64,000 nt of DNA from a virus. Positions 49,963 through 64,000 of this stretch are shown here, one piece after another. Under the pieces are notes generated by a model. The model ran no database searches. It saw nothing but the letters and a program-made list of their open reading frames with translations, and had not been told where the DNA came from. Position 1 is the first letter of the stretch. Every line of letters begins with the position of its first letter. Position numbers and translations under genes: made by a program. The DNA lies in the IMG/VR virus record IMGVR_UViG_3300046786_000121, positions 31,829-95,828 of that record; one strand, 5' to 3'.

Positions 49963-50151
49963 TTATCTAGGCGTGTAGGTGTCTACTCTTGCGGCCCATT
50001 GTTCCCCGGATCTCTGCTCTTGTTGGCTGGCAAAGTCTCGGGCCAATTGCCAAGCTTCGTCTTCATTAACAACTAATCTACCCGAAAGATCCTGTCTTTC
50101 AACGCGGATCTTTGTCTTGAGATTTTGTGCTAGAACTCTGTATGCTATCAT
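49963..50151 (-). CDS. Small hypothetical protein
   Basis: SD AGGAG, TAAATA at 50170-50175. Confidence 0.7.
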   Translation of the reverse strand: MIAYRVLAQNLKTKIRVERQDLSGRLVVNEDEAWQLARDFASQQEQRSGEQWAARVDTYTPR

Positions 50152-50172
50152 GTTTTGCTCCTGTCCCTGTAT

Positions 50173-50787: not shown

Positions 50788-50843
50788 GCTATCTCCTTGC
50801 TCTTTACTTAGCAGAATCAACAGTCCCAGATATAAGTATTGGC

Positions 50844-51392
50844 ATGCAGAAACAAACACAGGGCATATTTGCCCAAAATATCACGCTATACCACATTGCT
50901 CCCGAAGTCTATCAGCATAGACTAGGCATGTTTGACATGGAGTTAGATGGCACACACAGCTATAGTCTATCCAGCAGAGTACTAGATGATATCCCCCCAC
51001 TCAAGCAACAGATACAGGCCTGCATCACAGACTATGCTGCGACAGTTCTGGGCCTACTAGACACTGTGAACATAACAGAATCCTGGCTAAACAGCTATGA
51101 GCAGGATCAAACTATTCACCAACATCAACACCCAAATAGCATAGTTTCCGCAGTATGGTATTGGGACACAGAGCCAACTACTATAGAATTCCACAATCCC
51201 GCACAAGCTACAACCTGGACATTTAAACTACGCAGTAGATTCTCCGACACAGTCTCAGTTCCCGTTAAACAAGGTGACTTATTAGTTTGGCCCAGCTATC
51301 TACAACACAGTGCAAGAGCCGCAACAAATCGCAAGAGTCTAGCTGTTAACTCATTACCTAAGATTTGGGGTGATCGTTTGTGGCATAGCTGA
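50844..51392 (+). CDS. 2OG-Fe(II) oxygenase (TIGR02466-like)
   Basis: ESWLN, HQHPNSIVSAVWY, GDLLVWPSYLQH, R.SLA.N; TAAGTA 5 nt upstream. Confidence 0.8.
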   Translation: MQKQTQGIFAQNITLYHIAPEVYQHRLGMFDMELDGTHSYSLSSRVLDDIPPLKQQIQACITDYAATVLGLLDTVNITESWLNSYEQDQTIHQHQHPNSIVSAVWYWDTEPTTIEFHNPAQATTWTFKLRSRFSDTVSVPVKQGDLLVWPSYLQHSARAATNRKSLAVNSLPKIWGDRLWHS

Positions 51393-51475
51393 GAGTCAGA
51401 GAGCGCGAAGCGCACCGCGCAAAAAAGCAGATTTTTACTTGATAATCTACGCAGTTTATTGTATACTCACTGTAT

Positions 51476-51724
51476 ATGTACATTGAATTCAAACTGCCCA
51501 ATGGAAGTGCGGGACAAGCGCAAGCTCACTATAATAGACGTATACGACAAAGTATACATCAGTGGCTAGAAGCTAATAACATCACAGACTACGATATACG
51601 TCCACGTTTAGGCAACCATTACTATCTAGCGTTTACACTCTCAAAGGAAGAGCAATACACGCTGTTTCTATTGGCTTGGAACGAGCCTACGTTACCCATG
51701 CCCAAATTGGTAGTAGAGTACTAA
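51476..51724 (+). CDS. Hypothetical protein
   Basis: TTGATA-17-TATACT promoter at 51439-51467. Confidence 0.7.
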   Translation: MYIEFKLPNGSAGQAQAHYNRRIRQSIHQWLEANNITDYDIRPRLGNHYYLAFTLSKEEQYTLFLLAWNEPTLPMPKLVVEY

Positions 51725-51748
51725 AAAATGGCCGCGCAAATTTTTTAA

Positions 51749-51952
51749 TTATAAGAAATGTATAGGGTCTGGTGATTCTACACTAGCTGTACAGTGGCTA
51801 AAACGTAGTAAGAACTCTGTTCGAATGGCTCCGTCGGGCACCCAAAAACGTGTACGAGCTAGGTGGCATTCGTGTTCTAAGCCATGAAGTCGGACCCACT
51901 CCAATACACGGGCAAAGTCTGAATGCAGAGTGATTACATAGTACTGTTGCAT
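51749..51952 (-). CDS. Hypothetical protein
   Basis: 67-aa ORF. Confidence 0.6.
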   Translation of the reverse strand: MQQYYVITLHSDFARVLEWVRLHGLEHECHLARTRFWVPDGAIRTEFLLRFSHCTASVESPDPIHFL

Positions 51953-52188
51953 AGTAGTTCTAGTAGAATTTCTAGTATAACAGGATCGTAGGGAATGGGA
52001 GTGTACATGTTATTATATAGTGGATTATAGTAGTCTATAGAGAATTATAGTCTGCCCAAATGGGTCCTGCAGGGTAAAAAACTAGAGCGCTAAAAAATTT
52101 GGGTAGTAACTTTATCTTCTCAGGGTGGTGATTTGCTACCACTGTGGCGTTTTTACAACACTGCACACGCATATACCGGCCGGGGTTC

Positions 52189-52218
52189 ATTATAGCACCA
52201 CCACCTCCTGATGGTCAA
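52189..52218 (-). promoter_or_regulatory. Early promoter cassette 1
   Basis: ttggTTGACC-18-TATAAT; no ORF directly downstream. Confidence 0.6.
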
Positions 52219-52222
52219 CCAA

Positions 52223-52423
52223 TCAGCACCTCAGACTTCGATTCCCTCTCTCACTTTCTCTAAGATGGCTCCCACAGAGTCGATATGCGGCATCATCCCA
52301 CGCTGGAATCACGTCCGTCAACTGCCTGTGCTGTTTAGGATCCCAGGGCGCATCCCTGTAGTCCCGTACAGCGCAGCCTGTAAGACTAGCGCATAGCGCA
52401 AGCAATAGCACGATCCGTAGCAT
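52223..52423 (-). CDS. Small lipoprotein
   Basis: Lipobox LTGC; SD AGGAG. Confidence 0.75.
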   Translation of the reverse strand: MLRIVLLLALCASLTGCAVRDYRDAPWDPKQHRQLTDVIPAWDDAAYRLCGSHLRESERGNRSLRC

Positions 52424-52619
52424 CTGCGTAGTCTCCTAAGCCCTGTTCTTGTTCTATAGTATCCCACATCATTAGCTTGATTAGGCTACTGGCATCTACC
52501 CTATCCTGATGTGTGGGCATTGCCATAATCGTATCCTTAAGCTCGTCTTCATCACGGCAGGTCCAAAGGATCTCGGCAATGGCTATCTGCCTAGGGCTTA
52601 GTTTCTCAATGTGAATCAT
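52386..52619 (-). CDS. Hypothetical early protein
   Basis: Start re-called to MIHIEKL. Confidence 0.7.
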   Translation of the reverse strand: MIHIEKLSPRQIAIAEILWTCRDEDELKDTIMAMPTHQDRVDASSLIKLMMWDTIEQEQGLGDYADATDRAIACAMR

Positions 52620-52803
52620 AGTAGTCCAGTTCACTGTTACGGTTACCCAAGTAACCTGCATACATTGCAAGGAGCCCTAGGACTGCGACTACTGTAGAAC
52701 TAATCATTTGCTCGGTGGTTTCACTGTGCTCAATGCCACCTACGCCCCCAAAGACTAAGAGGAATCCTGCTAGGCTTACGATTGCGGCTGCTGTCTTGTT
52801 CAT
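52606..52803 (-). CDS. Small 2-TM membrane protein
   Basis: SD AAGGAG; two hydrophobic segments. Confidence 0.75.
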   Translation of the reverse strand: MNKTAAAIVSLAGFLLVFGGVGGIEHSETTEQMISSTVVAVLGLLAMYAGYLGNRNSELDYYDSH

Positions 52804-52826
52804 AGTATGCTCCTTTGTATGTCTAG

Positions 52827-52856
52827 ATTATAACAGGGGTTTTGGGCCCCTGTCAA
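52827..52856 (-). promoter_or_regulatory. Early promoter cassette 2
   Basis: TTGACA-18-TATAAT; ACAGGGG/CCCCTGT inverted repeat. Confidence 0.85.
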
Positions 52857-52859
52857 CCA

Positions 52860-53306
52860 TTATTTTACTTGTTGAAGACTCGCCACTTTGATAGTGAATA
52901 CTTCGTTGTCTGTGTCCCCGCGGAACTCTGATGCAAGGCAGTCCAGTTCTGCTTCGGCTTTCGTGATTTGAATGCCGTTGCGTGTGTATTCTACTTGAGG
53001 AACAAAGTCGTTGCGAACACGGGTGCAACGATAGTAGTATTCACCTTTGTGCTCGATGATGTGTGGATAGTCGAACCATTCGCCCCATGGCAGGCCCTGG
53101 TTCTGTGCTGGCAATTCGCCTGATGCTCGCTTGTCCTTAACCGCTTGGATGTTGTCGTATTCTACGCCTACACGGGCTTGGAATGTTGACAGCTTCATGA
53201 TTGGTTCTTTGTTTTTACGAACCTTCATTGGGCGGAGTGTTGTGAGCGTTGCGATAGTGCCGCGGCGCTTGTTTAGCAATTGCAGGATTTCGTTTGTTTG
53301 AATCAT
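52860..53306 (-). CDS. Hypothetical early protein
   Basis: SD AAGGAG; LPWGEW..YP.IIEHKGEYY. Confidence 0.85.
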   Translation of the reverse strand: MIQTNEILQLLNKRRGTIATLTTLRPMKVRKNKEPIMKLSTFQARVGVEYDNIQAVKDKRASGELPAQNQGLPWGEWFDYPHIIEHKGEYYYRCTRVRNDFVPQVEYTRNGIQITKAEAELDCLASEFRGDTDNEVFTIKVASLQQVK

Positions 53307-53335
53307 CTTAGCTCCTTTTGTGTGTGTATGTGTAA

Positions 53336-53364
53336 ATTATACAACCAAAATGTCTAGCTGTCAA
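53336..53364 (-). promoter_or_regulatory. Early promoter cassette 3
   Basis: TTGACA-17-TATAAT. Confidence 0.9.
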
Positions 53365-53471
53365 CCAAAAATCATAGTTCCTACCGCCGCGATCCATATC
53401 AGCAGAGCCTGGGCGATACCGTAGTGGAAGAGGAACCAAAACAGGGCGATCCATCCAATCAGTCTAATCAT
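53361..53471 (-). CDS. 36-aa hydrophobic peptide (not in ORF track)
   Basis: MIRLIGWIALFWFLFHYGIAQALLIWIAAVGTMIFG; own promoter and SD AAGGAG. Confidence 0.7.
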   Translation of the reverse strand: MIRLIGWIALFWFLFHYGIAQALLIWIAAVGTMIFG

Positions 53472-53498
53472 AGCCAACTCCTTTGTGTTGATGACTAG

Positions 53499-53527
53499 AG
53501 TATACTGTCACCTAGCCAAAATGTCAA
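53499..53527 (-). promoter_or_regulatory. Early promoter cassette 4
   Basis: TTGACA-17-TATACT. Confidence 0.88.
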
Positions 53528-53708
53528 CCAATCTTTGATTTAATTGATCCATCTCACTGGCTTCGACGTAGAAGTCTGTGGTGGGATCCCAGTAGCTGCC
53601 TTCCCGGGGATCGTAGTAGAGAACTCTATCGATGAACCAGAACGGCCCCTCGAGTCCATCACGGGGGAGCCACTTAGGATCCCGTGTGCCTAGAACCTTG
53701 AATCCCAT
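53508..53708 (-). CDS. Hypothetical early protein
   Basis: GLEGPF...VLYYDP.EG.YWDP.TDFY; TAATG coupling. Confidence 0.8.
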   Translation of the reverse strand: MGFKVLGTRDPKWLPRDGLEGPFWFIDRVLYYDPREGSYWDPTTDFYVEASEMDQLNQRLVDILAR

Positions 53709-53830
53709 TATCGGCTTTCGCGGACTGATTCGAGGATCTTAGCCTGCTTCTTCGCGATGTAGAAGCTGAATCCGAAACGGAAGACACGGACGAAGTGCAG
53801 TCCGCCTACCTTTTTGTATGTTAGAATCAT
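53708..53830 (-). CDS. 40-aa basic peptide (not in ORF track)
   Basis: MILTYKKVGGLHFVRVFRFGFSFYIAKK...; own promoter and SD. Confidence 0.7.
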   Translation of the reverse strand: MILTYKKVGGLHFVRVFRFGFSFYIAKKQAKILESVRESR

Positions 53831-53861
53831 CTTGGGCTCCTATTGCGTTGTTGATGTGTAG

Positions 53862-53890
53862 ATTATACCATCACTTGTCCAAAATGTCAA
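53862..53890 (-). promoter_or_regulatory. Early promoter cassette 5
   Basis: TTGACA-17-TATAAT; 32 bp identical to cassette 6. Confidence 0.9.
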
Positions 53891-53897
53891 CCATTTT

Positions 53898-54410
53898 TTA
53901 AAACTTTCCGCCTGGGCGAACAATGGCTGCACGATTGCCACATCGGCTACCGTCTTTAGCAGTCTGCCAGGTATAGTCGCAGGTTCCTAATGCCCCAGAT
54001 GCTGGGAATGCTCTAACCAAGGCTGCGAGAAGGATGCCTGTGCCTACTACCTTAACAACCGTTCCCCATCCTGTGTCCCAGAAACTGATTTCCGGTTCTT
54101 CCCTCGAAGGTTTCTGTGGGATTGACTTAGGAGTAATCCTTTCCTGAAACTCTGCTACTGTTTCGCTCTGCAGGATACAGTTGCTGCCATCTGTTGCATA
54201 GCTGGCAAAGTACCCCACATACCCGTCCTTGATAAACACATCCTTACCCTCGCTGGATCTGCGTTCCCAACCATTCTTCTCTCCATCGATGTAGAGTTGT
54301 TGATAGGCTTTGACGCAGGCTTCAGGCGAATTAAGCGGGAATCGTTCTACGGCAGCTTGACAGGTAGTTGCTAGGATTGCTAGGATTAGGAATGTTGCTA
54401 TAGAGCGCAT
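53898..54410 (-). CDS. Exported/membrane protein with Cys-containing C-terminal motif
   Basis: Signal peptide, TM segment, CDY.WQ.AKDGSRCG.RAA..RPGG. Confidence 0.75.
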   Translation of the reverse strand: MRSIATFLILAILATTCQAAVERFPLNSPEACVKAYQQLYIDGEKNGWERRSSEGKDVFIKDGYVGYFASYATDGSNCILQSETVAEFQERITPKSIPQKPSREEPEISFWDTGWGTVVKVVGTGILLAALVRAFPASGALGTCDYTWQTAKDGSRCGNRAAIVRPGGKF

Positions 54411-54436
54411 TGTATTCTCCTTCTTACAATGACTCT

Positions 54437-54465
54437 ATTATACCATCACTTGTCCAAAATGTCAA
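54437..54465 (-). promoter_or_regulatory. Early promoter cassette 6
   Basis: TTGACA-17-TATAAT, inside the 3' end of the upstream ORF. Confidence 0.9.
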
Positions 54466-54862
54466 CCAATTCCTTGCTGGATAATCCATTCGCCTTGGCC
54501 ATAGCCTTGATCTGCTCGGCTACTCTCTCACGGCGAGTTTCTTCATCACGGCGGGCCTTCTCGGCTTTGGCCAATGCTGCTTTCTTCTCTCGTTCGATCT
54601 TGGCTTCTTGGGCAAGGCGCTGCTTCTCTAAGCGTTCCTCGTATTCCTTGTCGGTTTCCAAGCGTTTGACAACCGCGACTGCCTCACCATAGGAATCCAT
54701 CTTGACAGTGATCCTGCCTCCGTGTAGAATCTCTTGTTCGGTGAAGTTTAGCCGAAAGTCTTCGAGTGCTTTGGCTGCTTCTCGGATTTCCTTGCCGTGA
54801 AATAGCTTTCTCAGAGGGATCCTCTTAGATTTCAGCTCAACGGTTTTGCGGGGCGCTGTCAT
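54446..54862 (-). CDS. Coiled-coil hypothetical protein
   Basis: 138 aa, charged helical C-terminal half. Confidence 0.75.
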   Translation of the reverse strand: MTAPRKTVELKSKRIPLRKLFHGKEIREAAKALEDFRLNFTEQEILHGGRITVKMDSYGEAVAVVKRLETDKEYEERLEKQRLAQEAKIEREKKAALAKAEKARRDEETRRERVAEQIKAMAKANGLSSKELVDILDK

Positions 54863-55142
54863 TGCTTTCTTTCAGTTGCTGACGAAGTTCCTGTGCTTGT
54901 CCCATAGCGTTGAATGCCTTATCTTGTGCATCCATGGTATAGAGGATCGCTGCCAAGCCTACGGTGCTCATGACGAGGTTGGTGATAATCAAGGGCCAAT
55001 CACGGACGCGAATCGCCACGAACAACCACATGAAACCTCCCACGACTAGGATCGAGGGGCCTTCAGGATAGTATCCTAAGCCGTTCACTCCAGTCCCCAC
55101 GATGAGGACCAGGGTGGCTAACCATTTAACGAATTCAGTCAA
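54837..55142 (-). CDS. 3-TM membrane protein
   Basis: Hydrophobic segments; ATGA-type overlap. Confidence 0.7.
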   Translation of the reverse strand: MTEFVKWLATLVLIVGTGVNGLGYYPEGPSILVVGGFMWLFVAIRVRDWPLIITNLVMSTVGLAAILYTMDAQDKAFNAMGQAQELRQQLKESNDSAPQNR

Positions 55143-55333
55143 ATCATCTCTCCTTCGCCGGAAGTCATGCAGTCTAGATCGTAATTTGCCTCTAGGATAT
55201 CTACTTCAAAGGTGTTAAGCTCAAAGGCTACGGATGTGTCGTAAACAGCATCAGGGAACTCACAGCCTGCTGCTACAAGTCCTTTGAGGTGTGCAAGTGC
55301 TTCTGTGAAGCGTGTGCGTTTTTGCTTTGCCAT
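55139..55333 (-). CDS. Hypothetical early protein
   Basis: Start re-called to MAKQKR after SD. Confidence 0.75.
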   Translation of the reverse strand: MAKQKRTRFTEALAHLKGLVAAGCEFPDAVYDTSVAFELNTFEVDILEANYDLDCMTSGEGEMI

Positions 55334-55361
55334 GTCCTGCTCCTTGTGTGTGTATGTGTAA

Positions 55362-55390
55362 ATTATACGACAGGATAGCCAAAATGTCAA
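55362..55390 (-). promoter_or_regulatory. Early promoter cassette 7
   Basis: TTGACA-17-TATAAT. Confidence 0.9.
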
Positions 55391-55393
55391 CCA

Positions 55394-55825
55394 TTATTTT
55401 GCCTGAGTGATCTCGCCCTGCTCATTGACGTTGAAGCTGCCGCCGATGAGTTCTGCCCCGTCGCCTTCTTCGATGACGAGCCTGATGCCTACCAGCTTCT
55501 CTCCCAGGCGCTTGATTAAGGATTCTTTGGAGTCTCCTTGGCCCAGGAACTGATCGTCTTCCTTGCGGAAAGCGTAAAGGACCTCGCCGTGCTTCTCAAT
55601 CTTGATAGGCACGATTTCGTAACCGTTCTCGTCACGCTCTGTGTCTGCTGCTGCTTCTGGATCGAGATCGTCTTTCCAATGGTTAATGAACTTGTCCAGT
55701 TCTTTGTTAGTGATGCCGGCTTTACGGAACATCTCTGCCATGGTGTAAAACATAATCTTCTCCTGCACCTTCCAGCCGAGCCAGAATGCAGCCACAAAGA
55801 CGAGAACGAGTTCGATGATATCCAT
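55394..55825 (-). CDS. N-anchored membrane protein
   Basis: N-terminal TM segment; TAATG coupling. Confidence 0.8.
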   Translation of the reverse strand: MDIIELVLVFVAAFWLGWKVQEKIMFYTMAEMFRKAGITNKELDKFINHWKDDLDPEAAADTERDENGYEIVPIKIEKHGEVLYAFRKEDDQFLGQGDSKESLIKRLGEKLVGIRLVIEEGDGAELIGGSFNVNEQGEITQAK

Positions 55826-56151
55826 TAGGCTTTCCTTGGGTGATAAAGAGCGGCTGCTTCCTTGCGAAGTGCTCCTGCTTTCTTGTATAATTCGTCTGCG
55901 GTATTCGACAGCGCGGCGCTACGGGCTTCTGTTAGCTTACTACCGCCGAACTCACGATCTATGTAGTACTGGATCAAGTTGTTCTTGATAAGGCTAACGA
56001 GATCGCCACCTTGATCATCTGGACAGATAAACCTGACGGGACACTTGCCCCAACTCTTATCGGATACGAACTCTGCGTAATACCGTCTATGATCCTTGTT
56101 GTGTGGATCAAAGGCTACTAAGGGCCTTGCAAGATATTCTAGTTTGCTCAT
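55825..56151 (-). CDS. Hypothetical early protein
   Basis: RP.VAFDP.NKDHR..Y..F.....WG.CPVRF. Confidence 0.8.
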   Translation of the reverse strand: MSKLEYLARPLVAFDPHNKDHRRYYAEFVSDKSWGKCPVRFICPDDQGGDLVSLIKNNLIQYYIDREFGGSKLTEARSAALSNTADELYKKAGALRKEAAALYHPRKA

Positions 56152-56177
56152 GTCTTTATTTAATAGTTAGATAATGT

Positions 56178-56206
56178 ATTATACTACCAAATGCTCGTCA
56201 AGTCAA
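56178..56206 (-). promoter_or_regulatory. Early promoter cassette 8
   Basis: TTGACT-17-TATAAT, abutting a terminator U-tract. Confidence 0.85.
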
Positions 56207-56208
56207 TC

Positions 56209-56245
56209 AAAAAAGGGCCCTCCGTGCATCAAAACAGGGAGGGCC
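56209..56245 (-). terminator. Intrinsic terminator
   Basis: GGCCCTCC/GGAGGGCC stem plus U6. Confidence 0.8.
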
Positions 56246-56259
56246 AAATGTTACCGCTA

Positions 56260-56275
56260 CCGGGAGCGAATCGGT
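56260..56275 (-). repeat. 16-nt 3'-UTR hairpin element, copy 1
   Basis: ACCGATTCGCTCCCGG, identical at 63742-63757. Confidence 0.9.
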
Positions 56276-56277
56276 TG

Positions 56278-56586
56278 TTACGCGGTAACAGCTTCTGCCG
56301 TCACGGCAGTAGTCTCAGGGGCCTTAGCAGCGGGGCCTGCGTTCTTTTTCGCCACATAGGCGATAGCAGCCAGGACCGCTGGGTTACCTGCACCATAACC
56401 AGTGGCGGTCAAGTGTGCGGCAATCTCAGCCTTAGTCATCTCATGCGGCAATGGAATCAAGTCCACGTCCGTATGTCCGTTCTTCGACAGGATCTTGATA
56501 CGCATGGTATCATTCGCGAAACGGATCTTAGTCTTACCATCAAGTGTAGAAACACCTGCAACTGCGAACTTCTTATCTGTAGCCAT
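56278..56586 (-). CDS. Hypothetical early protein
   Basis: SD GAGG, own promoter and terminator. Confidence 0.85.
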   Translation of the reverse strand: MATDKKFAVAGVSTLDGKTKIRFANDTMRIKILSKNGHTDVDLIPLPHEMTKAEIAAHLTATGYGAGNPAVLAAIAYVAKKNAGPAAKAPETTAVTAEAVTA

Positions 56587-56643
56587 TTAAATTACCTCTT
56601 CTGTATGTGTGTTAATCAATACCAAACCATTTGGTACAATTTT

Positions 56644-56672
56644 AATATAGCATCTCTGCTACCCTATGTCAA
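56644..56672 (-). promoter_or_regulatory. Early promoter cassette 9
   Basis: TTGACA-17-TATATT. Confidence 0.8.
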
Positions 56673-56676
56673 CCAA

Positions 56677-56856
56677 TTATTTTACCAAATTAGTCTGGAT
56701 CGTAACTGATTGTTTCTCGTCCAGGGCGGCGATGAATTCGTCGTCATAGACAAGATCCTGCATGGTGAGATCGATCATCGATTCCACCTTATCCATATCG
56801 GGAGTGCCCTCCCCGGCACACTCCACGGTGAATGTAAACTTATACTGGCGTGCCAT
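56677..56856 (-). CDS. Hypothetical early protein
   Basis: Start re-called to MARQYK after SD GGAGG. Confidence 0.7.
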   Translation of the reverse strand: MARQYKFTFTVECAGEGTPDMDKVESMIDLTMQDLVYDDEFIAALDEKQSVTIQTNLVK

Positions 56857-57457
56857 TCTTCGCCTCCACGCCGTCCTTAATCCACAAGGTGAGTTCTTCT
56901 TCGTTCTCACGCTCGTATTCTTCTAAGGTTGCCACGATATCGAATTCTTCGTCGAGTTCCTTTGGCAGGTCCACTTGTGCTTGCTTGCTACCGTTTGTGG
57001 TGTCGTAGCAGTCGTCCGAGCCATCCTCGTAGATACCTGCATACTCACAGCCTTCGCCCATATACAAGCAACGGACTTCGTAACCTTGGCTAACCATTGT
57101 GTCAAATGCGGCAATGGGTGGGCTCCACGCTGTTTGACAGTGCAGGACAATGGTGTTATCATCCATCCGCGTGTAACCTACTTCACAGAGATCCCACTTG
57201 GTGCCCCAATGCGTAATGTTCCAATCATACCAGCTGGAGAAGCCGTATTTGGCTACCATAGCCGCTTTCTTCTTCTCGCGAGCAGCCTGCTCTGGACCGT
57301 GTCCCCAAGTCGTTAAATCATCATCGACAAGTTCTTGGGGGCAAGGAATGATCGTCTGCAGAACCCCGACGTTGTTGTCGTGCGTTGCTTCAATTGCGTC
57401 GATCAAGGCTTTGTCAGCGTGTTTGATCGTGATGTTATTTGTGGTCCAATTAGGCAT
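56840..57457 (-). CDS. YubB/DUF1281 ferredoxin-like family protein
   Basis: MPNW..N.I.I, WYDWN..HWGTKWD, TAWSPP. Confidence 0.8.
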   Translation of the reverse strand: MPNWTTNNITIKHADKALIDAIEATHDNNVGVLQTIIPCPQELVDDDLTTWGHGPEQAAREKKKAAMVAKYGFSSWYDWNITHWGTKWDLCEVGYTRMDDNTIVLHCQTAWSPPIAAFDTMVSQGYEVRCLYMGEGCEYAGIYEDGSDDCYDTTNGSKQAQVDLPKELDEEFDIVATLEEYERENEEELTLWIKDGVEAKNGTPV

Positions 57458-57466
57458 CTCGGTTCC

Positions 57467-57649
57467 TTAGTTCAGTGAATCAATCATCTTGTTGAAAGTC
57501 TCGTCACCCCACTTGCGGCCCTGATAAGAGCAGATACCGCCAATGCGTTCCAGAGTGTTAATCTTCTCTGCATCAGTTGCATCGCTACGCATGATCTCTG
57601 CGGCTCTCTCTAACTGTTGCGCGACTGTGAGTTGTTGATCCTGTGTCAA
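57467..57649 (-). CDS. Hypothetical early protein
   Basis: TTG start with SD AAGGAG and own promoter. Confidence 0.7.
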   Translation of the reverse strand: MTQDQQLTVAQQLERAAEIMRSDATDAEKINTLERIGGICSYQGRKWGDETFNKMIDSLN

Positions 57650-57677
57650 TTGACTCTCCTTGTTAATCTATGCGTTA

Positions 57678-57706
57678 AGTATACAGCCAAAACGCATAGA
57701 TGTCAA
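57678..57706 (-). promoter_or_regulatory. Early promoter cassette 10
   Basis: TTGACA-17-TATACT; 11-bp inverted repeat around the -10. Confidence 0.88.
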
Positions 57707-57711
57707 CCAAA

Positions 57712-58038
57712 TTATGCCCCTTGATACAATTCGGCAGCGTTTACTGCGTATCCCATCAAGGCATCCTGTACAAGCTCGACGGCTTTGTAGCTTGTGCCAC
57801 CAATGTGCCATTCGCATTTGTGCAGGGGTGTGCTATACTGCTTCCAGTCGTAGATCGTTGCTACTGTGCCGTCTTCGCCTACGAGAATCCACTCTTGCGT
57901 AGTCTTATCGCCGCCACCTAAGCTGTCGCCGAACGTGGCAACCAGTGTTGCGAAGTCAGTTGTGATATAGCCTTGCAGGTGTGTGCCGTTGATCGAGTCG
58001 AAGTTGTCCTGGACTGTGTAAGTTGCATTGCGTGACAT
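57712..58038 (-). CDS. Hypothetical early protein
   Basis: GT.LQGYI...GDK...EW...ATIYDWK...WHIGG; start re-called. Confidence 0.8.
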   Translation of the reverse strand: MSRNATYTVQDNFDSINGTHLQGYITTDFATLVATFGDSLGGGDKTTQEWILVGEDGTVATIYDWKQYSTPLHKCEWHIGGTSYKAVELVQDALMGYAVNAAELYQGA

Positions 58039-58068
58039 GTCAGCTCCTATTGCGTTGTTGATGTATAG

Positions 58069-58097
58069 ATTATACAACCAAAATGCGTTGCTGTCAA
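58069..58097 (-). promoter_or_regulatory. Early promoter cassette 11
   Basis: TTGACA-17-TATAAT. Confidence 0.9.
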
Positions 58098-58504
58098 CCC
58101 AAAATGTAGGGTTTATTCCAGCGTCCCACGTTCACGTCAATGTAGTAAGCGGTATCGAAGTAGTCTGTCATCGCATCGCTGCGATCGTACCACTCATTGC
58201 CTTTTGCTGCTGCGAAGAGTTCAGTGAGGAACGCCTTGCAGTCGCCGGTGAAGTGCTCGTGGAACCAATAGGGGTTCACATCAATGGAATCCTTGGCAAT
58301 ATGAAGACGACGATCGCCTACAGGATCACGAGCCAGCGTTTCAGCATTGTAGTTGCCGATGAAGTCCAGCTTTCCCTGCTTGATGTTGATCATCAATGTG
58401 CTGTGATGATGAACTGCTAGGCTTGCTTTGACACCGTACTTTGTGCAGACTGCTTTGATTGCGGGTGCCAGCTTTGCCTTACGCTCTTGACTCATGTATG
58501 CCAT
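58094..58504 (-). CDS. Hypothetical early protein
   Basis: SD GGAG; D.SDAMTDYF..AYY.DVN.GRW.KPY. Confidence 0.85.
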   Translation of the reverse strand: MAYMSQERKAKLAPAIKAVCTKYGVKASLAVHHHSTLMINIKQGKLDFIGNYNAETLARDPVGDRRLHIAKDSIDVNPYWFHEHFTGDCKAFLTELFAAAKGNEWYDRSDAMTDYFDTAYYIDVNVGRWNKPYILG

Positions 58505-58535
58505 AGTTCGCTCCTATTGCGTTGTTGATGTGTAG

Positions 58536-58564
58536 ATTATACAACCAAAATCGTCAGTTGTCAA
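58536..58564 (-). promoter_or_regulatory. Early promoter cassette 12
   Basis: TTGACA-17-TATAAT. Confidence 0.9.
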
Positions 58565-58800
58565 GCCATTTCTTTGTAGACTTTGTAGCCCCTAGTCTGC
58601 AGAGTGTAGATTGCCTTGCGAATCTCAGAGGCTTTTGTGTCCTCCCAGTCCAGCATCTCCTTGGCAGCTTTGATAGTGTCATCATCACTGAACTCGCCGA
58701 AGTAGTAATGCTGATATCGATAGAACTTCTTCCCGTCCTCGTCCTTGAGCATCTGAATGGTGCCAATGCCCTTGTAGTCTACAATCTCGTTGAGTTTCAT
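58561..58800 (-). CDS. Hypothetical early protein
   Basis: SD AGGAG. Confidence 0.75.
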   Translation of the reverse strand: MKLNEIVDYKGIGTIQMLKDEDGKKFYRYQHYYFGEFSDDDTIKAAKEMLDWEDTKASEIRKAIYTLQTRGYKVYKEMA

Positions 58801-58801
58801 G

Positions 58802-58987
58802 TTATGCTCCTACGGGTGCGAACATCTTACGTCCCTCACGCATGAACGTGCGGATTGCGGCAGCTTCACGATTGTCCAGCTCATCGTTGTCCAGCTGTTC
58901 CTTCATGACAATAACCATGTCCAGCAGGCTCATACCGTATACGGCTCGCTTGTCTTCGATGATCTTGATTGCTTGCTTGATGTCCAC
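58802..58987 (-). CDS. Hypothetical early protein
   Basis: GTG start after SD AAGGAG. Confidence 0.7.
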   Translation of the reverse strand: MDIKQAIKIIEDKRAVYGMSLLDMVIVMKEQLDNDELDNREAAAIRTFMREGRKMFAPVGA

Positions 58988-59016
58988 GTCACGCTCCTTT
59001 GTGTTAGTATGACTCA

Positions 59017-59045
59017 ATTGTAATACCAAAAGGGGCTGTTGTCAA
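59017..59045 (-). promoter_or_regulatory. Early promoter cassette 13
   Basis: TTGACA-17-TACAAT; AAAGGGG/CCCCTTT around the -35. Confidence 0.85.
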
Positions 59046-59057
59046 CCCCTTTCAGAA

Positions 59058-59399
59058 TTACTTGCGTGTCACACGATAGATCGTTCCCTGCGCTGTAACT
59101 ACCTTCTCAGCACCTGCTGCCGCGAACATCTGTTCAATGTTGCTTGCTTCGCGTGTTAAACGATCTGCCGCTGTGGGCTTGTCGATCTTAACAGTGTAAA
59201 ACTTATCCCGGTAAGTGAGATAGACTTTGCTACGCATGAATGCCGAGCGTGTCAGTTCATGCAGTGCGTCTGCTTGCTGTTGTTGTGCTGTTGTGTAAAG
59301 TTGCTTCGATACAATGCTGCGGCGCTGTGCGTCCAAATACGCTGCCTGCTTGCTGTATTGTGTCTTAGCCGCTTGTGTGTCTAAATCTTTGCTTTGCAT
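59058..59399 (-). CDS. Hypothetical early protein
   Basis: SD GGAG; extended -10 TGTTATACT at 59439-59447. Confidence 0.75.
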   Translation of the reverse strand: MQSKDLDTQAAKTQYSKQAAYLDAQRRSIVSKQLYTTAQQQQADALHELTRSAFMRSKVYLTYRDKFYTVKIDKPTAADRLTREASNIEQMFAAAGAEKVVTAQGTIYRVTRK

Positions 59400-59489
59400 A
59401 TTGCGCTCCATTTAGTCCCTGCCTATTGCAGTGTCTCTAGTATAACACCATTTCGCAAAACTTTACCGAAAAATTAAAAAATATTTTGG

Positions 59490-59518
59490 TTGACATTTTG
59501 GACAGATGACCTTATAAT
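59490..59518 (+). promoter_or_regulatory. Inverted copy of the early promoter cassette
   Basis: ttggTTGACAttttggaca...TATAATagagtcat, 17-bp spacer. Confidence 0.88.
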
Positions 59519-59524
59519 AGAGTC

Positions 59525-59620
59525 ATAGGTTCGAAGGCTATCCCCGGGGTGGACGTCGAGGGCCACCGTGTGTGTCTCACGGTGCTGAAGGCAAAAAAAG
59601 GGCCCCGAAGGGCCCTAAAC
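59525..59620 (+). ncRNA. Candidate structured small RNA
   Basis: Strong promoter, no SD-led ORF, several GC-rich hairpins. Confidence 0.45.
59593..59616 (-). terminator. Intrinsic terminator
   Basis: AGGGCCC-TTCG-GGGCCCT plus U-tract on the minus strand. Confidence 0.9.
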
Positions 59621-59638
59621 CAACCACCAGGAGAAACC

Positions 59639-59815
59639 TTAGCTGTTCACAGTCTCGAACGGACTGAGCTCTTCGCTGTCCGCCACGCCCATGTCTTCGA
59701 GTGCGGCAAGCACTGTCTCGATGCTACACTCTAAGAGTGTTGCAATCATCTTAGCACTGTGGCCCTCGATGTAGAGTTCTTGAATGTCATACGACAGGTC
59801 TTTAATTGCGCTCAT
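59639..59815 (-). CDS. 58-aa HTH-like protein (not in ORF track)
   Basis: MSAIKDLSYDIQELYIEGHSAKMIATLLECSIETV...; SD AAGGA; ATGA coupling. Confidence 0.75.
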   Translation of the reverse strand: MSAIKDLSYDIQELYIEGHSAKMIATLLECSIETVLAALEDMGVADSEELSPFETVNS

Positions 59816-60042
59816 ACTGTTTCCTTTGATTTGACAAATATTACTAGATCATCTTGTGATACACGCTCATCGACACTCCACTCATCATCGTAGTAATCGA
59901 TCCATTGACGAAGTGCGGGTTCGTCATTATCGACTTCTCCGTTAAAGCCGAGCTCTAGAGCCTCTTCTTCTGTATCAGCCTCTACCCAGTATGATTCCTG
60001 GATAAGGCTGGTACGGCTCAATAAGAACTTATACTTCTTCAC
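59812..60042 (-). CDS. Hypothetical early protein
   Basis: VEADTEEEA motif; GTGA coupling. Confidence 0.7.
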   Translation of the reverse strand: MKKYKFLLSRTSLIQESYWVEADTEEEALELGFNGEVDNDEPALRQWIDYYDDEWSVDERVSQDDLVIFVKSKETV

Positions 60043-60167
60043 TTGGCAAGTTCGGTGCTCTGAGTCTTGACAGTATCAACGCCCTTGTCTAACATACGAG
60101 CGATGCCACTGAAGCCTACTGTTGCCAATACTAGTCCAAAGACTGTGCCTGCGATGAATGCTTTCAT
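60039..60167 (-). CDS. 42-aa membrane peptide (not in ORF track)
   Basis: MKAFIAGTVFGLVLATVGFSGIARMLDKGV...; SD AGGAG. Confidence 0.75.
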   Translation of the reverse strand: MKAFIAGTVFGLVLATVGFSGIARMLDKGVDTVKTQSTELAK

Positions 60168-60301
60168 GATTGCTCCTGTGAAGACTTCTTAGAGAACTTC
60201 CACTTGATGAACTGGAAGGCTGTTTGAACAAGACCTATGCGCCAAGCCCACATAAGATCCATAACTACCATACCAACTACGAATGCTACGATGATTTCCA
60301 T
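60164..60301 (-). CDS. Small membrane peptide
   Basis: Start re-called to MEIIVAF after SD AAGGAG. Confidence 0.7.
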   Translation of the reverse strand: MEIIVAFVVGMVVMDLMWAWRIGLVQTAFQFIKWKFSKKSSQEQS

Positions 60302-60329
60302 ATCAGCTCCTTTGTGTGTGTATGCGTGT

Positions 60330-60358
60330 ATTATATGCTCATTACGTGCGCTTGTCAA
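60330..60358 (-). promoter_or_regulatory. Early promoter cassette 14
   Basis: TTGACA-17-TATAAT. Confidence 0.9.
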
Positions 60359-60395
60359 GCACATTAGCAGCGGGGCCTACAGCCCCATGCCCTTT

Positions 60396-61607
60396 TTAGC
60401 CTGCGTCTTTCTCGTAGATAACAGTCTGTCCAAAGGGTGCTTCTGCGTCTGTGTTGCCTTTGACAATGAAGATAGTATCTACTTGATCCTCAGGACCCCA
60501 ACTGCCGCAAGGGTAGCCGTCTGTGAACATAATGAACTTCTTAGCCTCAATGCCTTCGTCAAGCATGAACTGGAAGTTAATATCAAAGTCAGTGCCGCCA
60601 CCGCCTTGAGGTTCGTAGTCCAAGAGGTCCAAACTGTTGTCTTGAGTAATCTTGACATAGTTGTAGATCTGTGTATCAAAGCACCACAGGTGAATACTGA
60701 AGTCCTCGTACTGGTCCATGATACCTTTAACTTCGCTGAGGAAGGTAGAAGCATCTTCTGTGCCAATACTGCCCGACATATCAACTGCAATAGCCACGTC
60801 AATAGTAGTATCCTGACGCATACCTGGGAGGATTGCGCCGCTGTGCATACTCTTACGATTAGGGCGAGTGAAGCTGTAATCGTTGCGGATAATGCTTTGG
60901 ATCTCTTGACGGATCAACTGGCGCCAGCTAATCTTAGGCTCAGTCATGTCCTTGATCAAACGCTGGATACCTGCGGGCACTTTACCTGCGCCAGCGGCAC
61001 TTGCACTCTGCACCATTGCTTCTTTGATCTCATCACGGATGCGTTGTGCGTCTTCCTTAGAGATAGTAGGGCGTCCGCCTTTGCCTTTCTCGCCTTCTTC
61101 ACCTTCACCGCCTGGGCTGTTGCCGTCCTCGTTGATGTGTTCGTCCAGCAAGTCGCCGAGCTGTTGCAAGAGTTGAGGCATACTGATCTTCTCTGCTTTA
61201 TCGTAGAGCTCGTCGTAGATCTCTTCCCATGCCATGCCACGATACTTGTTATCCTGGCAAATCTTTACTTCAGTAATCTTGTCGCCGATGCGCTCGTCTA
61301 CAAGGATCTGATTGACAGCAAAGTCCTGCGCGATGTTACTCAGTTGACGATCGCGGCTACCAACACGCCCAAAGTGATCAAACACGCAGTGGCAGATCTC
61401 GTGTCCGAACAAGAACTCCAGCTTCTTAATGCTGAGCTTTTGCACGAACTTGGTGTTGTAATAGAAGTCGCGTCCGTTAGTAGCGGCAGTAGGACACCAG
61501 TCGTCTGCTTCGATAAGACGCATACGAGTTGCCATGTTGCCAAAGAAAGGCGCTTTGAGTAGCAAGCCTACTCGGGCTGTGGTTAGTTTCTCGACGATTG
61601 GATCCAT
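60396..61607 (-). CDS. DUF2201-type metallopeptidase-like + VWA domain protein
   Basis: TAATNG, HEICH (HExxH), VDMSGS MIDAS, GGGGTDF, FTDGY. Confidence 0.92.
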   Translation of the reverse strand: MDPIVEKLTTARVGLLLKAPFFGNMATRMRLIEADDWCPTAATNGRDFYYNTKFVQKLSIKKLEFLFGHEICHCVFDHFGRVGSRDRQLSNIAQDFAVNQILVDERIGDKITEVKICQDNKYRGMAWEEIYDELYDKAEKISMPQLLQQLGDLLDEHINEDGNSPGGEGEEGEKGKGGRPTISKEDAQRIRDEIKEAMVQSASAAGAGKVPAGIQRLIKDMTEPKISWRQLIRQEIQSIIRNDYSFTRPNRKSMHSGAILPGMRQDTTIDVAIAVDMSGSIGTEDASTFLSEVKGIMDQYEDFSIHLWCFDTQIYNYVKITQDNSLDLLDYEPQGGGGTDFDINFQFMLDEGIEAKKFIMFTDGYPCGSWGPEDQVDTIFIVKGNTDAEAPFGQTVIYEKDAG

Positions 61608-61639
61608 GTTTCGCTTCCTAGTGTTGTCTGTATGTATAT

Positions 61640-61668
61640 ATTATACAATCAGACGTTGCCTCTGTCAA
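61640..61668 (-). promoter_or_regulatory. Early promoter cassette 15
   Basis: TTGACA-17-TATAAT, abutting a terminator. Confidence 0.9.
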
Positions 61669-61670
61669 CC

Positions 61671-61707
61671 AAAAAAGGAGGGAGAGTGAACCTAAATCCA
61701 CTCTCCC
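61671..61707 (-). terminator. Intrinsic terminator
   Basis: GGGAGAGTG/CACTCTCCC stem plus U6. Confidence 0.8.
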
Positions 61708-61716
61708 CTGCAATGG

Positions 61717-62822
61717 GCGAGGTCTTAATTCTCCATTGCAGAAAGCACATACTTACCAAAACGCTTGTGGAATTCGTCGAATGACTTCATCTTAGTAGCG
61801 TCGAAGGGCAAGTTATAGTTAGTCAAGCCAGTCTTGGCACCCATCACAACCAGCTCGGTTGGGAAGTTGTCCATCATGTAACGGAAGAAGCAGTCTGCCA
61901 TTTCGTCAAACTTCTTGTTCTTCTTCTCTGCTTGATCCTTGAGCTCGTAGCACAATGACACGGTCAAGGAATACATCGCTGAGACTTCCTTAATCTGCAA
62001 GTCTTTAACCTTGCCTTCAAGGATGTCAATTGCCTTAGGCAAACGACCTGCAATCTTGCGGTGAGCCATAAACTTAACAGCCAAGCCATCGCCAACAGCA
62101 CCAGCAACCAAGTTGTGGAGAGTGTCAATGTCAGTGTCGTCGTCTTTGAGCAAGTCGCTCACGAACACCCAAGAACGAGGAGTTGCGAATGCCTTGCTAG
62201 GACTCTTTGGATCAAAGTCATACAAGTCCTGCTTGGCAAAGCCCACATAACCAAGAACCTCAGGGTGGATTGCGTTCATAACAGCCCACTCTTGGAAGTC
62301 GTCAAAGTCAACCTTGGCTTCCAAGTGAATGAAGCGGTTAGCCAACGGAGCAGGCATACGGTATGTCACGCCACGATCGCCTTCACGGTTACCAGCGGCA
62401 ACCACGTCAACACCCTTAGGCAGTTCGTAGGTACCAACACGGCGGTTCAGGATCAACTGATATGCCGCGGCTTGCACAGCTGGAGGAGCGGAGTTAAGCT
62501 CGTCCAAGAAGATGATTGCTGTGGACTCAGGGTCTGTAGGCAGTTCAGCTGGGGGAGCCCAAACCATTGCGCCTTTGTCTGAGTTGTAATAAGGGATACC
62601 TTTGATGTCAGTAGGTTCCCACAATGCCAGACGCACGTCAACGACTTCGCGACCTGCATCTTCGCCAATTTGCTTGACGATATCGGATTTACCAATGCCT
62701 GGAGGACCCCACAGGAACACTGGACGGCGGGTGCCGATTGCTTTACGAATAGAACGCTTCGCGGCTTTTGGACCAACTTGGCGGACGGACATATCTGAAG
62801 ATTTTGCCATTTAAGACCTCGC
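61717..62822. repeat. Perfect 12-bp inverted repeat bracketing the MoxR gene
   Basis: GCGAGGTCTTAA at 61717-61728 and TTAAGACCTCGC at 62811-62822. Confidence 0.92.
61725..62810 (-). CDS. MoxR-family AAA+ ATPase
   Basis: WGPPGIGKS, IFLDELN, AAGNR, PLANRF, TPRSW. Confidence 0.93.
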   Translation of the reverse strand: MAKSSDMSVRQVGPKAAKRSIRKAIGTRRPVFLWGPPGIGKSDIVKQIGEDAGREVVDVRLALWEPTDIKGIPYYNSDKGAMVWAPPAELPTDPESTAIIFLDELNSAPPAVQAAAYQLILNRRVGTYELPKGVDVVAAGNREGDRGVTYRMPAPLANRFIHLEAKVDFDDFQEWAVMNAIHPEVLGYVGFAKQDLYDFDPKSPSKAFATPRSWVFVSDLLKDDDTDIDTLHNLVAGAVGDGLAVKFMAHRKIAGRLPKAIDILEGKVKDLQIKEVSAMYSLTVSLCYELKDQAEKKNKKFDEMADCFFRYMMDNFPTELVVMGAKTGLTNYNLPFDATKMKSFDEFHKRFGKYVLSAMEN

Positions 62823-62862
62823 TTTAAGAAAATTAAAAGTTACTGTGTTTCTCAGTGTCTAA

Positions 62863-62891
62863 AGTATAGCACCGAAGTGCCGTCCTGTCAA
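62863..62891 (-). promoter_or_regulatory. Early promoter cassette 16
   Basis: TTGACA-17-TATACT; GCAC-TTCG-GTGC in the spacer. Confidence 0.88.
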
Positions 62892-63640
62892 CCGGTTTTC
62901 TTCACATAATTCAACTGAGTAGTCTTGTCATCGCGTTGGGCTTTGATCTTAGCCTTGATGCGATGCTCTGAGTCCTTAGACAAGTCTGAGGGGAACCAGA
63001 AGTCAACAAACGATTCTCCCATGCGGGCCTGAATGCGATACTTATTGTATTCTTTGTTGAATCGTGTAGTGACAACAGTAATGTCGCCTACTATAGTGTC
63101 CCCTACATTCCCGGCGAGCTGTACGCTGCTGTAGACTTCACGCTTGACTTCTTGATTAACACGATCACGACGTGCGATGCTAGGGAGGCAACTGATGATT
63201 GCGAACTCCAGCATATTGCGTCCGGTGAACTGCTCGATGCAGGAAATCTTGTATGCCTGGGACTGGAACTCGTTGAGTCCGCCAGCGATAGCTTTCATTG
63301 TGTAGCTTGTGAAGTGTCTGCGATACTCTTCGCCTGCTTGACGATCTTCCTCAGTGACGAGGCTGAAGTCGTTCTTCTGTAGGCATTCGCGAACGATACG
63401 CTTGTTAGCACGTTTCGAGATCTCGGAAGTGTCTTGTCCTGTAACGATCCACTGATCCTCTTTGAGGTAGCCGCCATTGATACGATCAACTGCTGCTGCT
63501 AAGGCCCAGACATCTGCTGCTTGGAACACTGACGGGACTCTGACTTGAGTCATACGTGGCTCTTCGTAGTCGTCATCCTCGTGACCCAGACGCTGGATAT
63601 CACGTCTGCTCCATCCACTTACATCTACGAATCCTGGCAT
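62888..63640 (-). CDS. Hypothetical protein with OB-fold-like C-terminus
   Basis: SD AAGGAG; G.VGD.I...I.V...IKAKIK......T.LNYVK. Confidence 0.75.
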   Translation of the reverse strand: MPGFVDVSGWSRRDIQRLGHEDDDYEEPRMTQVRVPSVFQAADVWALAAAVDRINGGYLKEDQWIVTGQDTSEISKRANKRIVRECLQKNDFSLVTEEDRQAGEEYRRHFTSYTMKAIAGGLNEFQSQAYKISCIEQFTGRNMLEFAIISCLPSIARRDRVNQEVKREVYSSVQLAGNVGDTIVGDITVVTTRFNKEYNKYRIQARMGESFVDFWFPSDLSKDSEHRIKAKIKAQRDDKTTQLNYVKKTG

Positions 63641-63670
63641 ATCTCGCTCCTTGTTTTAAACAATAGCTCT

Positions 63671-63699
63671 ATTATATAGTCTAACTTAGAGTCTGTCAA
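63671..63699 (-). promoter_or_regulatory. Early promoter cassette 17
   Basis: TTGACA-17-TATAAT, abutting a terminator. Confidence 0.9.
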
Positions 63700-63701
63700 C
63701 C

Positions 63702-63728
63702 AAAAAGAAAGGACTCCTAAGAGTCCTT
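63702..63728 (-). terminator. Intrinsic terminator
   Basis: AAGGACTC-TTAG-GAGTCCTT plus U-rich tract. Confidence 0.85.
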
Positions 63729-63741
63729 CCTCAAACCCGCC

Positions 63742-63757
63742 CCGGGAGCGAATCGGT
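63742..63757 (-). repeat. 16-nt 3'-UTR hairpin element, copy 2
   Basis: ACCGATTCGCTCCCGG, identical at 56260-56275. Confidence 0.9.
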
Positions 63758-63774
63758 ATAGGTTTGAAAGCTAA

Positions 63775-64000
63775 TTACAGAGCTGAGCTGTGCATACCCA
63801 AAGCGCGAGCCTTGTAGCCAAGAGCTACGATCTCACGTGATGGCTTGCCAATCTCGTAAGTTGTAACCATAACGCCATTGCCTGCCTTGTGACGTTTAGC
63901 GTAGACAGCATAACCACTGTGACGAATGCGAGTAGCTTCGGCACGGATGTTCTTTACACCAAAGCGATGATTCGCTTCGGCTGCTGTCAATGTCTCGCCG
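63775..64000 (-). CDS. Winged-helix DNA-binding protein, 5'-truncated
   Basis: GETLTAAEA..RFGVKNIRA....IR.SGY.VY; frame open to the window edge. Confidence 0.7.
   Translation of the reverse strand, partial: GETLTAAEANHRFGVKNIRAEATRIRHSGYAVYAKRHKAGNGVMVTTYEIGKPSREIVALGYKARALGMHSSAL

Follow-up and report, generated by a model that had tools for sequence, protein, structure and literature searches.

An RNA hairpin conserved in the 3'UTRs of two early genes of uncultured freshwater jumbo phages, with a loop complementary to the extended ribosome-binding sites of their early genes

Post-transcriptional control in phages is known mostly from proteins (RegA, RegB) and from a few small RNAs (sRNAs) aimed at host genes. 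In bacteria, sRNAs derived from 3' untranslated regions (3'UTRs), of the CpxQ, DapZ and SroC type, carry a seed-bearing structure just 5' of the mRNA's own terminator and can act in trans on the ribosome-binding sites (RBSs) of other mRNAs. The Staphylococcus aureus RNAIII hairpins and RsaE/RoxS are stand-alone sRNA genes in which several loops with a shared C-rich UCCC motif target the generic G-rich Shine-Dalgarno (SD) sequences of a regulon. The subject of this work is an RNA hairpin that occurs twice in a 64,000-nt stretch of viral DNA (hereafter the window), which is the last 64 kb of the 95.8-kb IMG/VR record IMGVR_UViG_3300046786_000121 (CheckV completeness 27%). Read as its reverse complement, the loop of this hairpin gives GGAGCGAA (hereafter the tag), the extended RBS that occurs most often in the clade's early region. 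The element is a conserved 3'UTR RNA hairpin of an uncultured freshwater jumbo phage clade, far beyond what chance would give. The best-supported explanation for it is a putative anti-RBS pairing that would control early translation, in trans or on read-through RNA, and we hold this explanation to be probable by a small measure.

The cuckoo/CcsR1-4 (alpha-r14) sRNAs of Alphaproteobacteria are described as two to four adjacent hairpins with an invariant anti-SD-like loop, CCUCCUCCC, on variable stems, and their processing and maturation are attributed there to CcaF1 and RNase E (PMC4615179, PMC8034643). In icaR of Staphylococcus aureus, a 3'UTR anti-SD motif pairs with the gene's own SD and blocks translation (PMC3868564). 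The early genes of phage T4 share an extended SD, GGAGAAUAAAA (consensus GGAGRAYARAA), which is cut by the RegB endonuclease with S1 for early shut-off, and C at position 5 is counter-selected in RegB sites (PMC1702504).

The phage element resembles cuckoo/CcsR in presenting one invariant anti-SD-like loop on variable stems and in a copy number that differs among relatives. It differs in having the loop (A/G)UUCGCUCC, not CCUCCUCCC, with no Rfam match, and in being encoded by a phage and not by a bacterium. Its one to three hairpins stand behind an HTH_39 gene or a gene without a Pfam family, whereas theirs stand behind a small DUF1127 gene, and it matches an extension that is private to the early RBSs of the phage itself, whereas theirs matches generic SDs. 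It is therefore not a cuckoo/CcsR member, but it plausibly works in a similar way. The phage carrier mRNAs never bear a matching RBS, unlike icaR, which targets its own SD. As in the 3'UTR-derived sRNAs, the phage hairpin lies between a stop codon and the gene's own intrinsic terminator, with a seed complementary to the translation initiation regions (TIRs) of candidate targets; its seed is in a hairpin loop, whereas theirs is a linear 5' seed, and both its regulator and its targets would be viral. RNase E release, Hfq/ProQ dependence and an internal promoter are features of those sRNAs. It differs from RNAIII and RsaE/RoxS in being part of mRNAs and in its 8-nt, class-specific match. With T4 RegB/S1 it shares an extended SD, common to phage early genes, that would mark a class for post-transcriptional shut-off; the effector is a protein in T4 and is proposed to be RNA here. 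The tag is not itself a RegB-type site, as GGAGCGAA has C5 and G6 and violates the consensus at position 5, and no RegB homologue (PF10715) was found in the record and two complete relatives, in a search without a positive control signal. Among known systems, the closest described architecture is that of cuckoo/CcsR and the closest logic that of T4 RegB/S1.

The initial annotation of the window had reported an identical 16-mer, ACCGATTCGCTCCCGG, on the minus strand at 56260-56275 and 63742-63757. Both matches were found, and they are the only ones in the window at up to 3 mismatches (0 of 100 shuffles gave two); there was no third match in the whole 95.8-kb record, even at 2-3 mismatches. As had been annotated, each copy sits between a stop codon and an intrinsic terminator, copy 1 after the stop of a 102-aa open reading frame (ORF) and copy 2 after the ORF end at 63775. 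Downstream of each copy come a GC-rich hairpin with a U-run and then a consensus sigma70 promoter. The nested fold with unlike outer stems around an inner CCG/CGG or ACCG/CGGU was reproduced by RNAfold. The carriers, hairpins and terminators are listed below, with the scores of a covariance model (CM) built from the copies in relatives.

56278 to 56586, minus strand: early 102-aa 'VAKKN' gene, carrier of copy 1 in its 3'UTR; own RBS GAGG, no tag
56249 to 56290, minus strand: extended hairpin of copy 1; outer stem GUUACCGC/GCGGUAAC, inner stem ACCG/CGGU; CM score 31.4 bits
56209 to 56245, minus strand: intrinsic terminator of copy 1 (GGCCCUCC...GGAGGGCC and U-run)
63775 to 64000, minus strand: 3' part of a winged helix-turn-helix (wHTH) gene, carrier of copy 2 in its 3'UTR; Pfam HTH_39 (1e-5), phrog_4973; continues past the contig end
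63731 to 63767, minus strand: extended hairpin of copy 2; outer stem CAAACC(U)/(G)GGUUUG, 3x3 internal loop, inner stem CCG/CGG; CM score 33 bits
63700 to 63730, minus strand: intrinsic terminator of copy 2

The outer stem of copy 1 covers the final codons and the UAA stop (56278-56280) of the VAKKN gene. The open 9-nt loop, AUUCGCUCC, occupies 56263-56271 in copy 1 and 63745-63753 in copy 2, and the predicted probability of being unpaired is 0.91-1.0 for the loop bases of both copies. In the window the motif hairpin is not itself an intrinsic terminator, a separate terminator hairpin coming next.

The exact 16-mer is present in 90 IMG/VR stretches. About 63 of these instances show a stop codon, a variable outer stem, the 16-mer, a terminator and a promoter in that order; 8 are GC-rich and chance-like, and in 17 the reverse complement serves as the RBS hairpin of other genes in other phages. 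Another group of viral contigs (L004, L016, L018, L038 and L070; labels beginning with L or G denote loci or genomes other than the window) carries the reverse complement CCG-GGAGCGAAU-CGG, followed by U-GUG, as the conserved region from which an endonuclease VII-like gene with GTG as its start codon is initiated; the flanks have diverged. The SD of this region is in the hairpin loop, an exact mirror of the 3'UTR hairpin; the endonuclease VII identity was assigned by eye from the sequence pattern.

Because a search with the 16-mer brings ascertainment bias, homologues of both upstream proteins were collected independently of it. The hairpin is kept in 37 of 40 distinct 3'UTRs of the VAKKN gene, with the inner stems CCG/CGG, ACG/CGU, UCG/CGA, UUG/CAA, UCA/UGA and CUG/CAG, and in about 40 of 55 distinct 3'UTRs of the wHTH gene, an AT-rich sister clade being without it. 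That clade (L177, L182, L190, L193, L195, L203, L212) has instead, in the wHTH 3'UTR before the terminator, a conserved palindromic hairpin GG(A/U)UAGGCCUA(U/A)CC. Loop variation is confined to positions 1 (A/G), 2 (U>C), 8 (C>U) and 9 (C>U), and the C8->U and C9->U changes still pair with the tag through G-U.

Covariation was analysed by aligning 72 distinct copies without gaps. All 72 share the loop core UCGCU and keep the three inner pairs, at which both partners have changed in a compensatory way in 12, 8 and 1 sequences. Against 0.123 +/- 0.015 in shuffled alignments, the covariation score was 0.275 (0 of 500 shuffles as high); it is highest at slide 0 and drops when the 3' partner is slid. 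The stems observed include CCG/CGG, CCUAGG/CCUAGG, CCUUGG/CCAAGG, GUCACG/CGUGAC and CUGCAAG/CUUGUAG (one G-U pair). Of 90 cases, 61 fold more stably on the sense strand than on the antisense strand (p = 4e-5), and G-U pairs number 179 on the former and 91 on the latter; the structure is therefore placed in the RNA of the gene strand. Both in the window's record and in four larger relatives, two of which are 98-100% complete, the covariance model gave the two 3'UTR hairpins as its only strong matches; one of the four has an additional, weaker tandem copy. In the record and these relatives the two hairpins are always about 7 kb apart on one strand. Two to three tandem hairpins with the same loop occur in the wHTH 3'UTR of some relatives and in the 3'UTR of another gene in L073 and L074, and in L020, L073 and L074 the loop hairpin itself carries a U-run and is the terminator. 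The fixed loop, the covarying stems and the better sense-strand fold bear out the annotation's idea of a reusable structured RNA module.

A comparison of window positions 50000-64000 with Rfam 15 at E <= 10 gave no match save two chance hits to long non-coding RNAs, and in seven related loci only tRNAs reached the gathering score. No publication or Rfam entry for this element was found. A mimic of the tRNA T-arm/T-loop, which needs a G53-C61 closing pair and UUCRA with A58, was considered and rejected: the loop reads UUCGC, with C where A58 would be, A mostly stands in for G53 as the closing base, and there was no tRNA model hit.

It is improbable that the role of the hairpin is purely structural, as a second hairpin that shields the 3' end or helps the terminator and so serves termination or mRNA stability, with a loop inherited along with mobile promoter/terminator cassettes and not selected for pairing. 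Its position directly 5' of the terminator hairpin, or as the terminator, is constant, the early region is made of repeated terminator-promoter-leader cassettes, and a palindromic hairpin of another kind (GGNUAGGCCUANCC) takes this place in the sister clade, all of which would suit such a role. However, a structural accessory has no need of an invariant 9-nt loop across proteins that are only 62-78% identical, where stems, terminators and flanks have diverged. No exposed-loop hairpin of this kind was found at the terminators near 59.6 and 61.7 kb, the window's other two early-region terminators, and the complementarity to the tag would have to be a coincidence of about 1 in 10^4-10^5.

The RBSs in the window that match the loop are the following.

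58507 to 58514, minus strand: tagged RBS GGAGCGAA of a 136-aa gene (ATG 58504), promoter-proximal (promoter 58564-58536); 8/8 match, duplex -13.1 kcal/mol
63643 to 63650, minus strand: tagged RBS GGAGCGAG-AU-AUG of a 250-aa gene (ATG 63640), 92 nt 3' of copy 2 and after the promoter 63699-63671; duplex -12.6 kcal/mol
61610 to 61618, minus strand: imperfect tag GGAAGCGAA of a DUF2201 metallopeptidase/VWA-like gene (ATG 61607); bulged duplex, -9.5 kcal/mol
58992 to 58997, minus strand: GGAGCG(UG) with a possible GTG start of a small ORF ending at 58802; weaker candidate target

The three pairings that the annotation had proposed were confirmed: the loop matches the RBS of the 58504 gene (GGAGCGAA-CU-AUG, in a leader of the type GGAGCGAACU-AUG) at all 8 positions, that of the 63640 gene with 7 Watson-Crick pairs and one G-U pair, and that of the VWA-like gene partially. 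On the two tagged TIRs the canonical 16S 3' tail, which may not be the host's tail, gives -6.5 and -9.7 kcal/mol, against -13.1 and -12.6 kcal/mol for the loop. Both are among the four best targets, other than the hairpins' own complement, in the 191,632 12-nt windows of the record. The other early leaders in the window have GGAGC followed by differing bases. Near-identical promoter-leader cassettes (TATAAT-CUACACAUCAACAACGCAAUA-GGAGC...) lie at 58504-58530, 58069-58097 and 53830-53890, ahead of unrelated small early genes, and differ only after GGAGC (GAAC, UGAC, CCAAG). T4-type phages have mobile early promoter/stem-loop cassettes, to which those of the window are similar.

Among relatives' loci fetched with the VAKKN gene, exact GGAGCGAA is present in 129 of 575 GGAG-type TIRs, and the next classes are one-letter variants at position 8. 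Two complete genomes hold 9 and 13 sites of the form GGAGCGAA-N1-5-ATG, against 0-1 for a reversed control; 6 of the 9 and 10 of the 13 are inside a block of about 15-17 kb that holds both hairpins, on the same strand. Tag and hairpin are also present or absent together. A GGAGCGA RBS lies within 2.5 kb in 48 of 48 distinct wHTH loci with the hairpin (124 of 706 SD-type TIRs) and in 2 of 18 without it (2 of 203 TIRs; Fisher p = 1e-12), a count that overstates the independent events because the loci are related. The hairpin-less sister clade has no dominant tag, just generic AGAGGAAA-type sites.

Tag and loop are the same 8-bp DNA site in opposite orientations, the tags are about 10-20 bp downstream of predicted transcription starts, and a wHTH regulator gene stands beside one copy. 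The word GGAGCGAA/TTCGCTCC might on these grounds be an operator in double-stranded DNA, bound for instance by the wHTH protein, with the RNA hairpin incidental. We consider this highly improbable: RNA is indicated by the compensatory changes in the stems, by the G-U pairs and by the bias to the sense strand, the spacing of the tag to the start codon is fixed and RBS-like at 1-5 nt, and flanking inverted repeats of variable sequence are not needed by an operator.

Two further claims of the annotation concerned transcripts. Copy 1 and the 58504 RBS had been suggested as the two ends of one transcript, which is not demonstrable, at least three promoter-like sites lying in between. No minus-strand terminator between 58.5 and 56.3 kb was listed by the promoter/terminator scan, which also missed the copy-1 terminator. 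A GGAGCGAA RBS had also been predicted to head the transcript that begins beyond 64000. As the window's contig ends there, this was judged in the closest relatives, where it fails: in L024 and L062 a promoter of its own, a leader of about 55 nt and the RBS AAGGAAA precede the wHTH gene. GGAGCG was found in 0 of 50 distinct wHTH and 0 of 37 VAKKN carrier-gene TIRs, and the strongest duplex that the loop can form with the window's VAKKN TIR is -2.8 kcal/mol. As the carriers are without the tag, self-circularisation of the icaR type is excluded as a general mode, and the failed prediction speaks for a trans mode or for action on RNA that reads through the terminator. The gene next after the wHTH hairpin, terminator and promoter has the tag, 92-158 nt downstream, in the window and in G001 and G005. 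The element may act in trans on the tagged regulon or in cis on read-through RNA.

The proposed mechanism would be the following. In two early mRNAs the hairpin displays the 9-nt single-stranded loop (A/G)UUCGCUCC just 5' of the terminator. This loop is an 'anti-tag' that can pair over 7-8 bp with GGAGCGA(A), an extension on the 3' side of the SD that is peculiar to the clade and is borne by about ten of its promoter-proximal early genes. The hairpins would pair with the tagged RBSs and shield them from the 30S subunit, so that rising levels of the carrier mRNAs would tune or shut off translation of the early regulon. The acting form may be the full mRNA, a 3' fragment processed from it or, in cis, RNA that reads through the terminator as far as a tagged RBS about 90-160 nt away. 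What was observed is the sequence and structure of the element, its strand, conservation and covariation, its complementarity to the tag, and its co-occurrence and genomic clustering with it. We infer that pairing takes place in the cell, that its direction is repression and not protection or activation, and that a small RNA may be released.

The region is present in RNA libraries, all of which are labelled freshwater. Five freshwater metatranscriptome libraries from different studies contain 37-75% of the sampled words of 55800-64000. Assembled RNA-library contigs cover most of this range, with the VAKKN gene, hairpin and terminator bridged in two runs; the bin 63472-63745 has little or no contig cover. 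The contigs of the runs X2 and X4 start at 63747, inside the copy-2 loop, and a contig of the run X3 starts at 63762; the X2 and X3 contigs have an Illumina adapter as a loose end. The starts at 63747 and 63762 were considered as an RNA end and rejected, as they are seen in assembled contigs only and random priming from the sole open stretch of a structured 3' end looks alike. One RNA-library contig each at 59410 and 61604, too few to interpret, also ended in an Illumina adapter, at or beside the start codon of the 59411 gene and of the VWA-like gene, respectively. The contig depth figures give no basis for ranking genes.

Several observations weigh against anti-RBS pairing. RNA libraries may contain DNA, and the contigs attest presence in RNA libraries and not transcript ends. 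The window's own phage has the full tag at just two RBSs, and the gene after copy 1 is without it. The loci are phylogenetically non-independent and may represent one or two evolutionary events. No lineage was found in which loop core and tag had changed together, nor any with an altered loop core, the support consisting of conservation and of presence and absence, and the loop variant U2->C comes without an accompanying shift to GGAGCGAG tags. Hairpins presenting the tag at tagged TIRs are just modestly enriched, 30% against 19% in shuffles. Lastly, hairpins with a repeated loop also stand behind a wHTH homologue in the distant pelagiphage HTVC008M, and for that loop there is no matching RBS class.

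The HTVC008M arrangement would suit a site of protein recognition or processing, at which a phage or host RNA-binding protein binds or an endoribonuclease sets the 3' end or matures a 3' fragment; the loop would then be kept for the protein, and the RBS match would be secondary or serve another purpose. We regard such a site as unlikely, but as a serious alternative. An invariant loop on variable stems is also typical of protein-bound hairpins, two to three tandem identical loops resemble protein-sponge RNAs, and the element is always behind the same two small genes, one of which encodes a nucleic-acid-binding wHTH protein. In cuckoo/CcsR, the hairpins are bound by the small protein encoded upstream (PMC8034643). 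The contig starts at 63747 inside the loop in two runs are a weak hint in the same direction, from contigs only. However, a protein site leaves unexplained the exact 8-nt complement of the clade's private RBS tag and the joint presence and absence of tag and hairpin. It also has no candidate protein, and copy 1 is bridged intact by RNA-library contigs. In HTVC008M (KC465899.1 about 91770-91870; L244:826-925) the wHTH homologue adjoins a phage-encoded ribosomal protein S21 gene, and two of the three hairpins have the loop CUCGUAAAU; the genome has no RBS class matching it and no further copies.

The window's genes include one for a tail sheath and one for a large terminase, the latter sharing about 52% identity with the terminases of Pseudomonas phage PA5oct and Sinorhizobium phage Phosso, and the source is therefore an uncultured jumbo myovirus with a genome of roughly 350 kb. 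Near and distant DNA searches found no relative of this phage among cultured phages, and no cultured homologue of either carrier gene was found except the wHTH of HTVC008M, which is 36% identical. From about 50 kb to the window end, small minus-strand genes are separated by perfect sigma70-type promoters (TTGACA-17-TATAAT) and intrinsic terminators, and this block presumably is the early region. For the VAKKN protein, neither Pfam nor PHROG gave a family, the ESM Atlas had no hit, and no fold in the PDB matched at E <= 0.001; its AF2 model has a predicted local distance difference test (pLDDT) score of 79.

On the minus strand at 60396-62810, a MoxR-like AAA+ ATPase gene (AAA_5/AAA_3) is followed by that of the DUF2201 metallopeptidase/VWA-like protein, a conserved early gene pair, and the ATPase has more than 600 relatives in IMG/VR. 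In this phage clade the ATPase gene has a large-loop terminator 3' of it, which does not mirror the tag. Phage tRNA gene clusters lie a few kb from the early region in relatives (L024 6314-6563, L073 6662-6909, L003 20-259, L072 5065-5138). In many relatives (e.g. L164, L172, L214) the conserved word CCGGCACUCC is found after the wHTH terminator, just 5' of the next TTGACA; it may be an operator or an UP-like element, and it is not present at the corresponding spot in the window.

Taken further, anti-RBS pairing may amount to an RNA-only, class-specific translational timer in freshwater jumbo phages, in which the two carrier mRNAs, as abundant early transcripts, or their processed 3' ends would titrate about ten GGAGCGAA-tagged RBSs and close the early programme, as an independently evolved RNA analogue of T4 RegB. 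We advance this tentatively, as a possibility that falls somewhat short of probable. If true, the element would be a new family for RNA catalogues. It would also offer an orthogonal pair for synthetic biology, consisting of an 8-nt tag and a 37-42-nt hairpin with consensus sigma70 promoters, for which E. coli would suffice and no phage culture would be needed; UUGCGUCC is an example mutant form of the loop UUCGCUCC, given for design only. For the phages themselves, it would account for the oddly extended SD that they keep, and it would mean that a virus-encoded anti-RBS hairpin, with a private tag on the virus's own early genes, provides compact and portable timing of a whole gene class.

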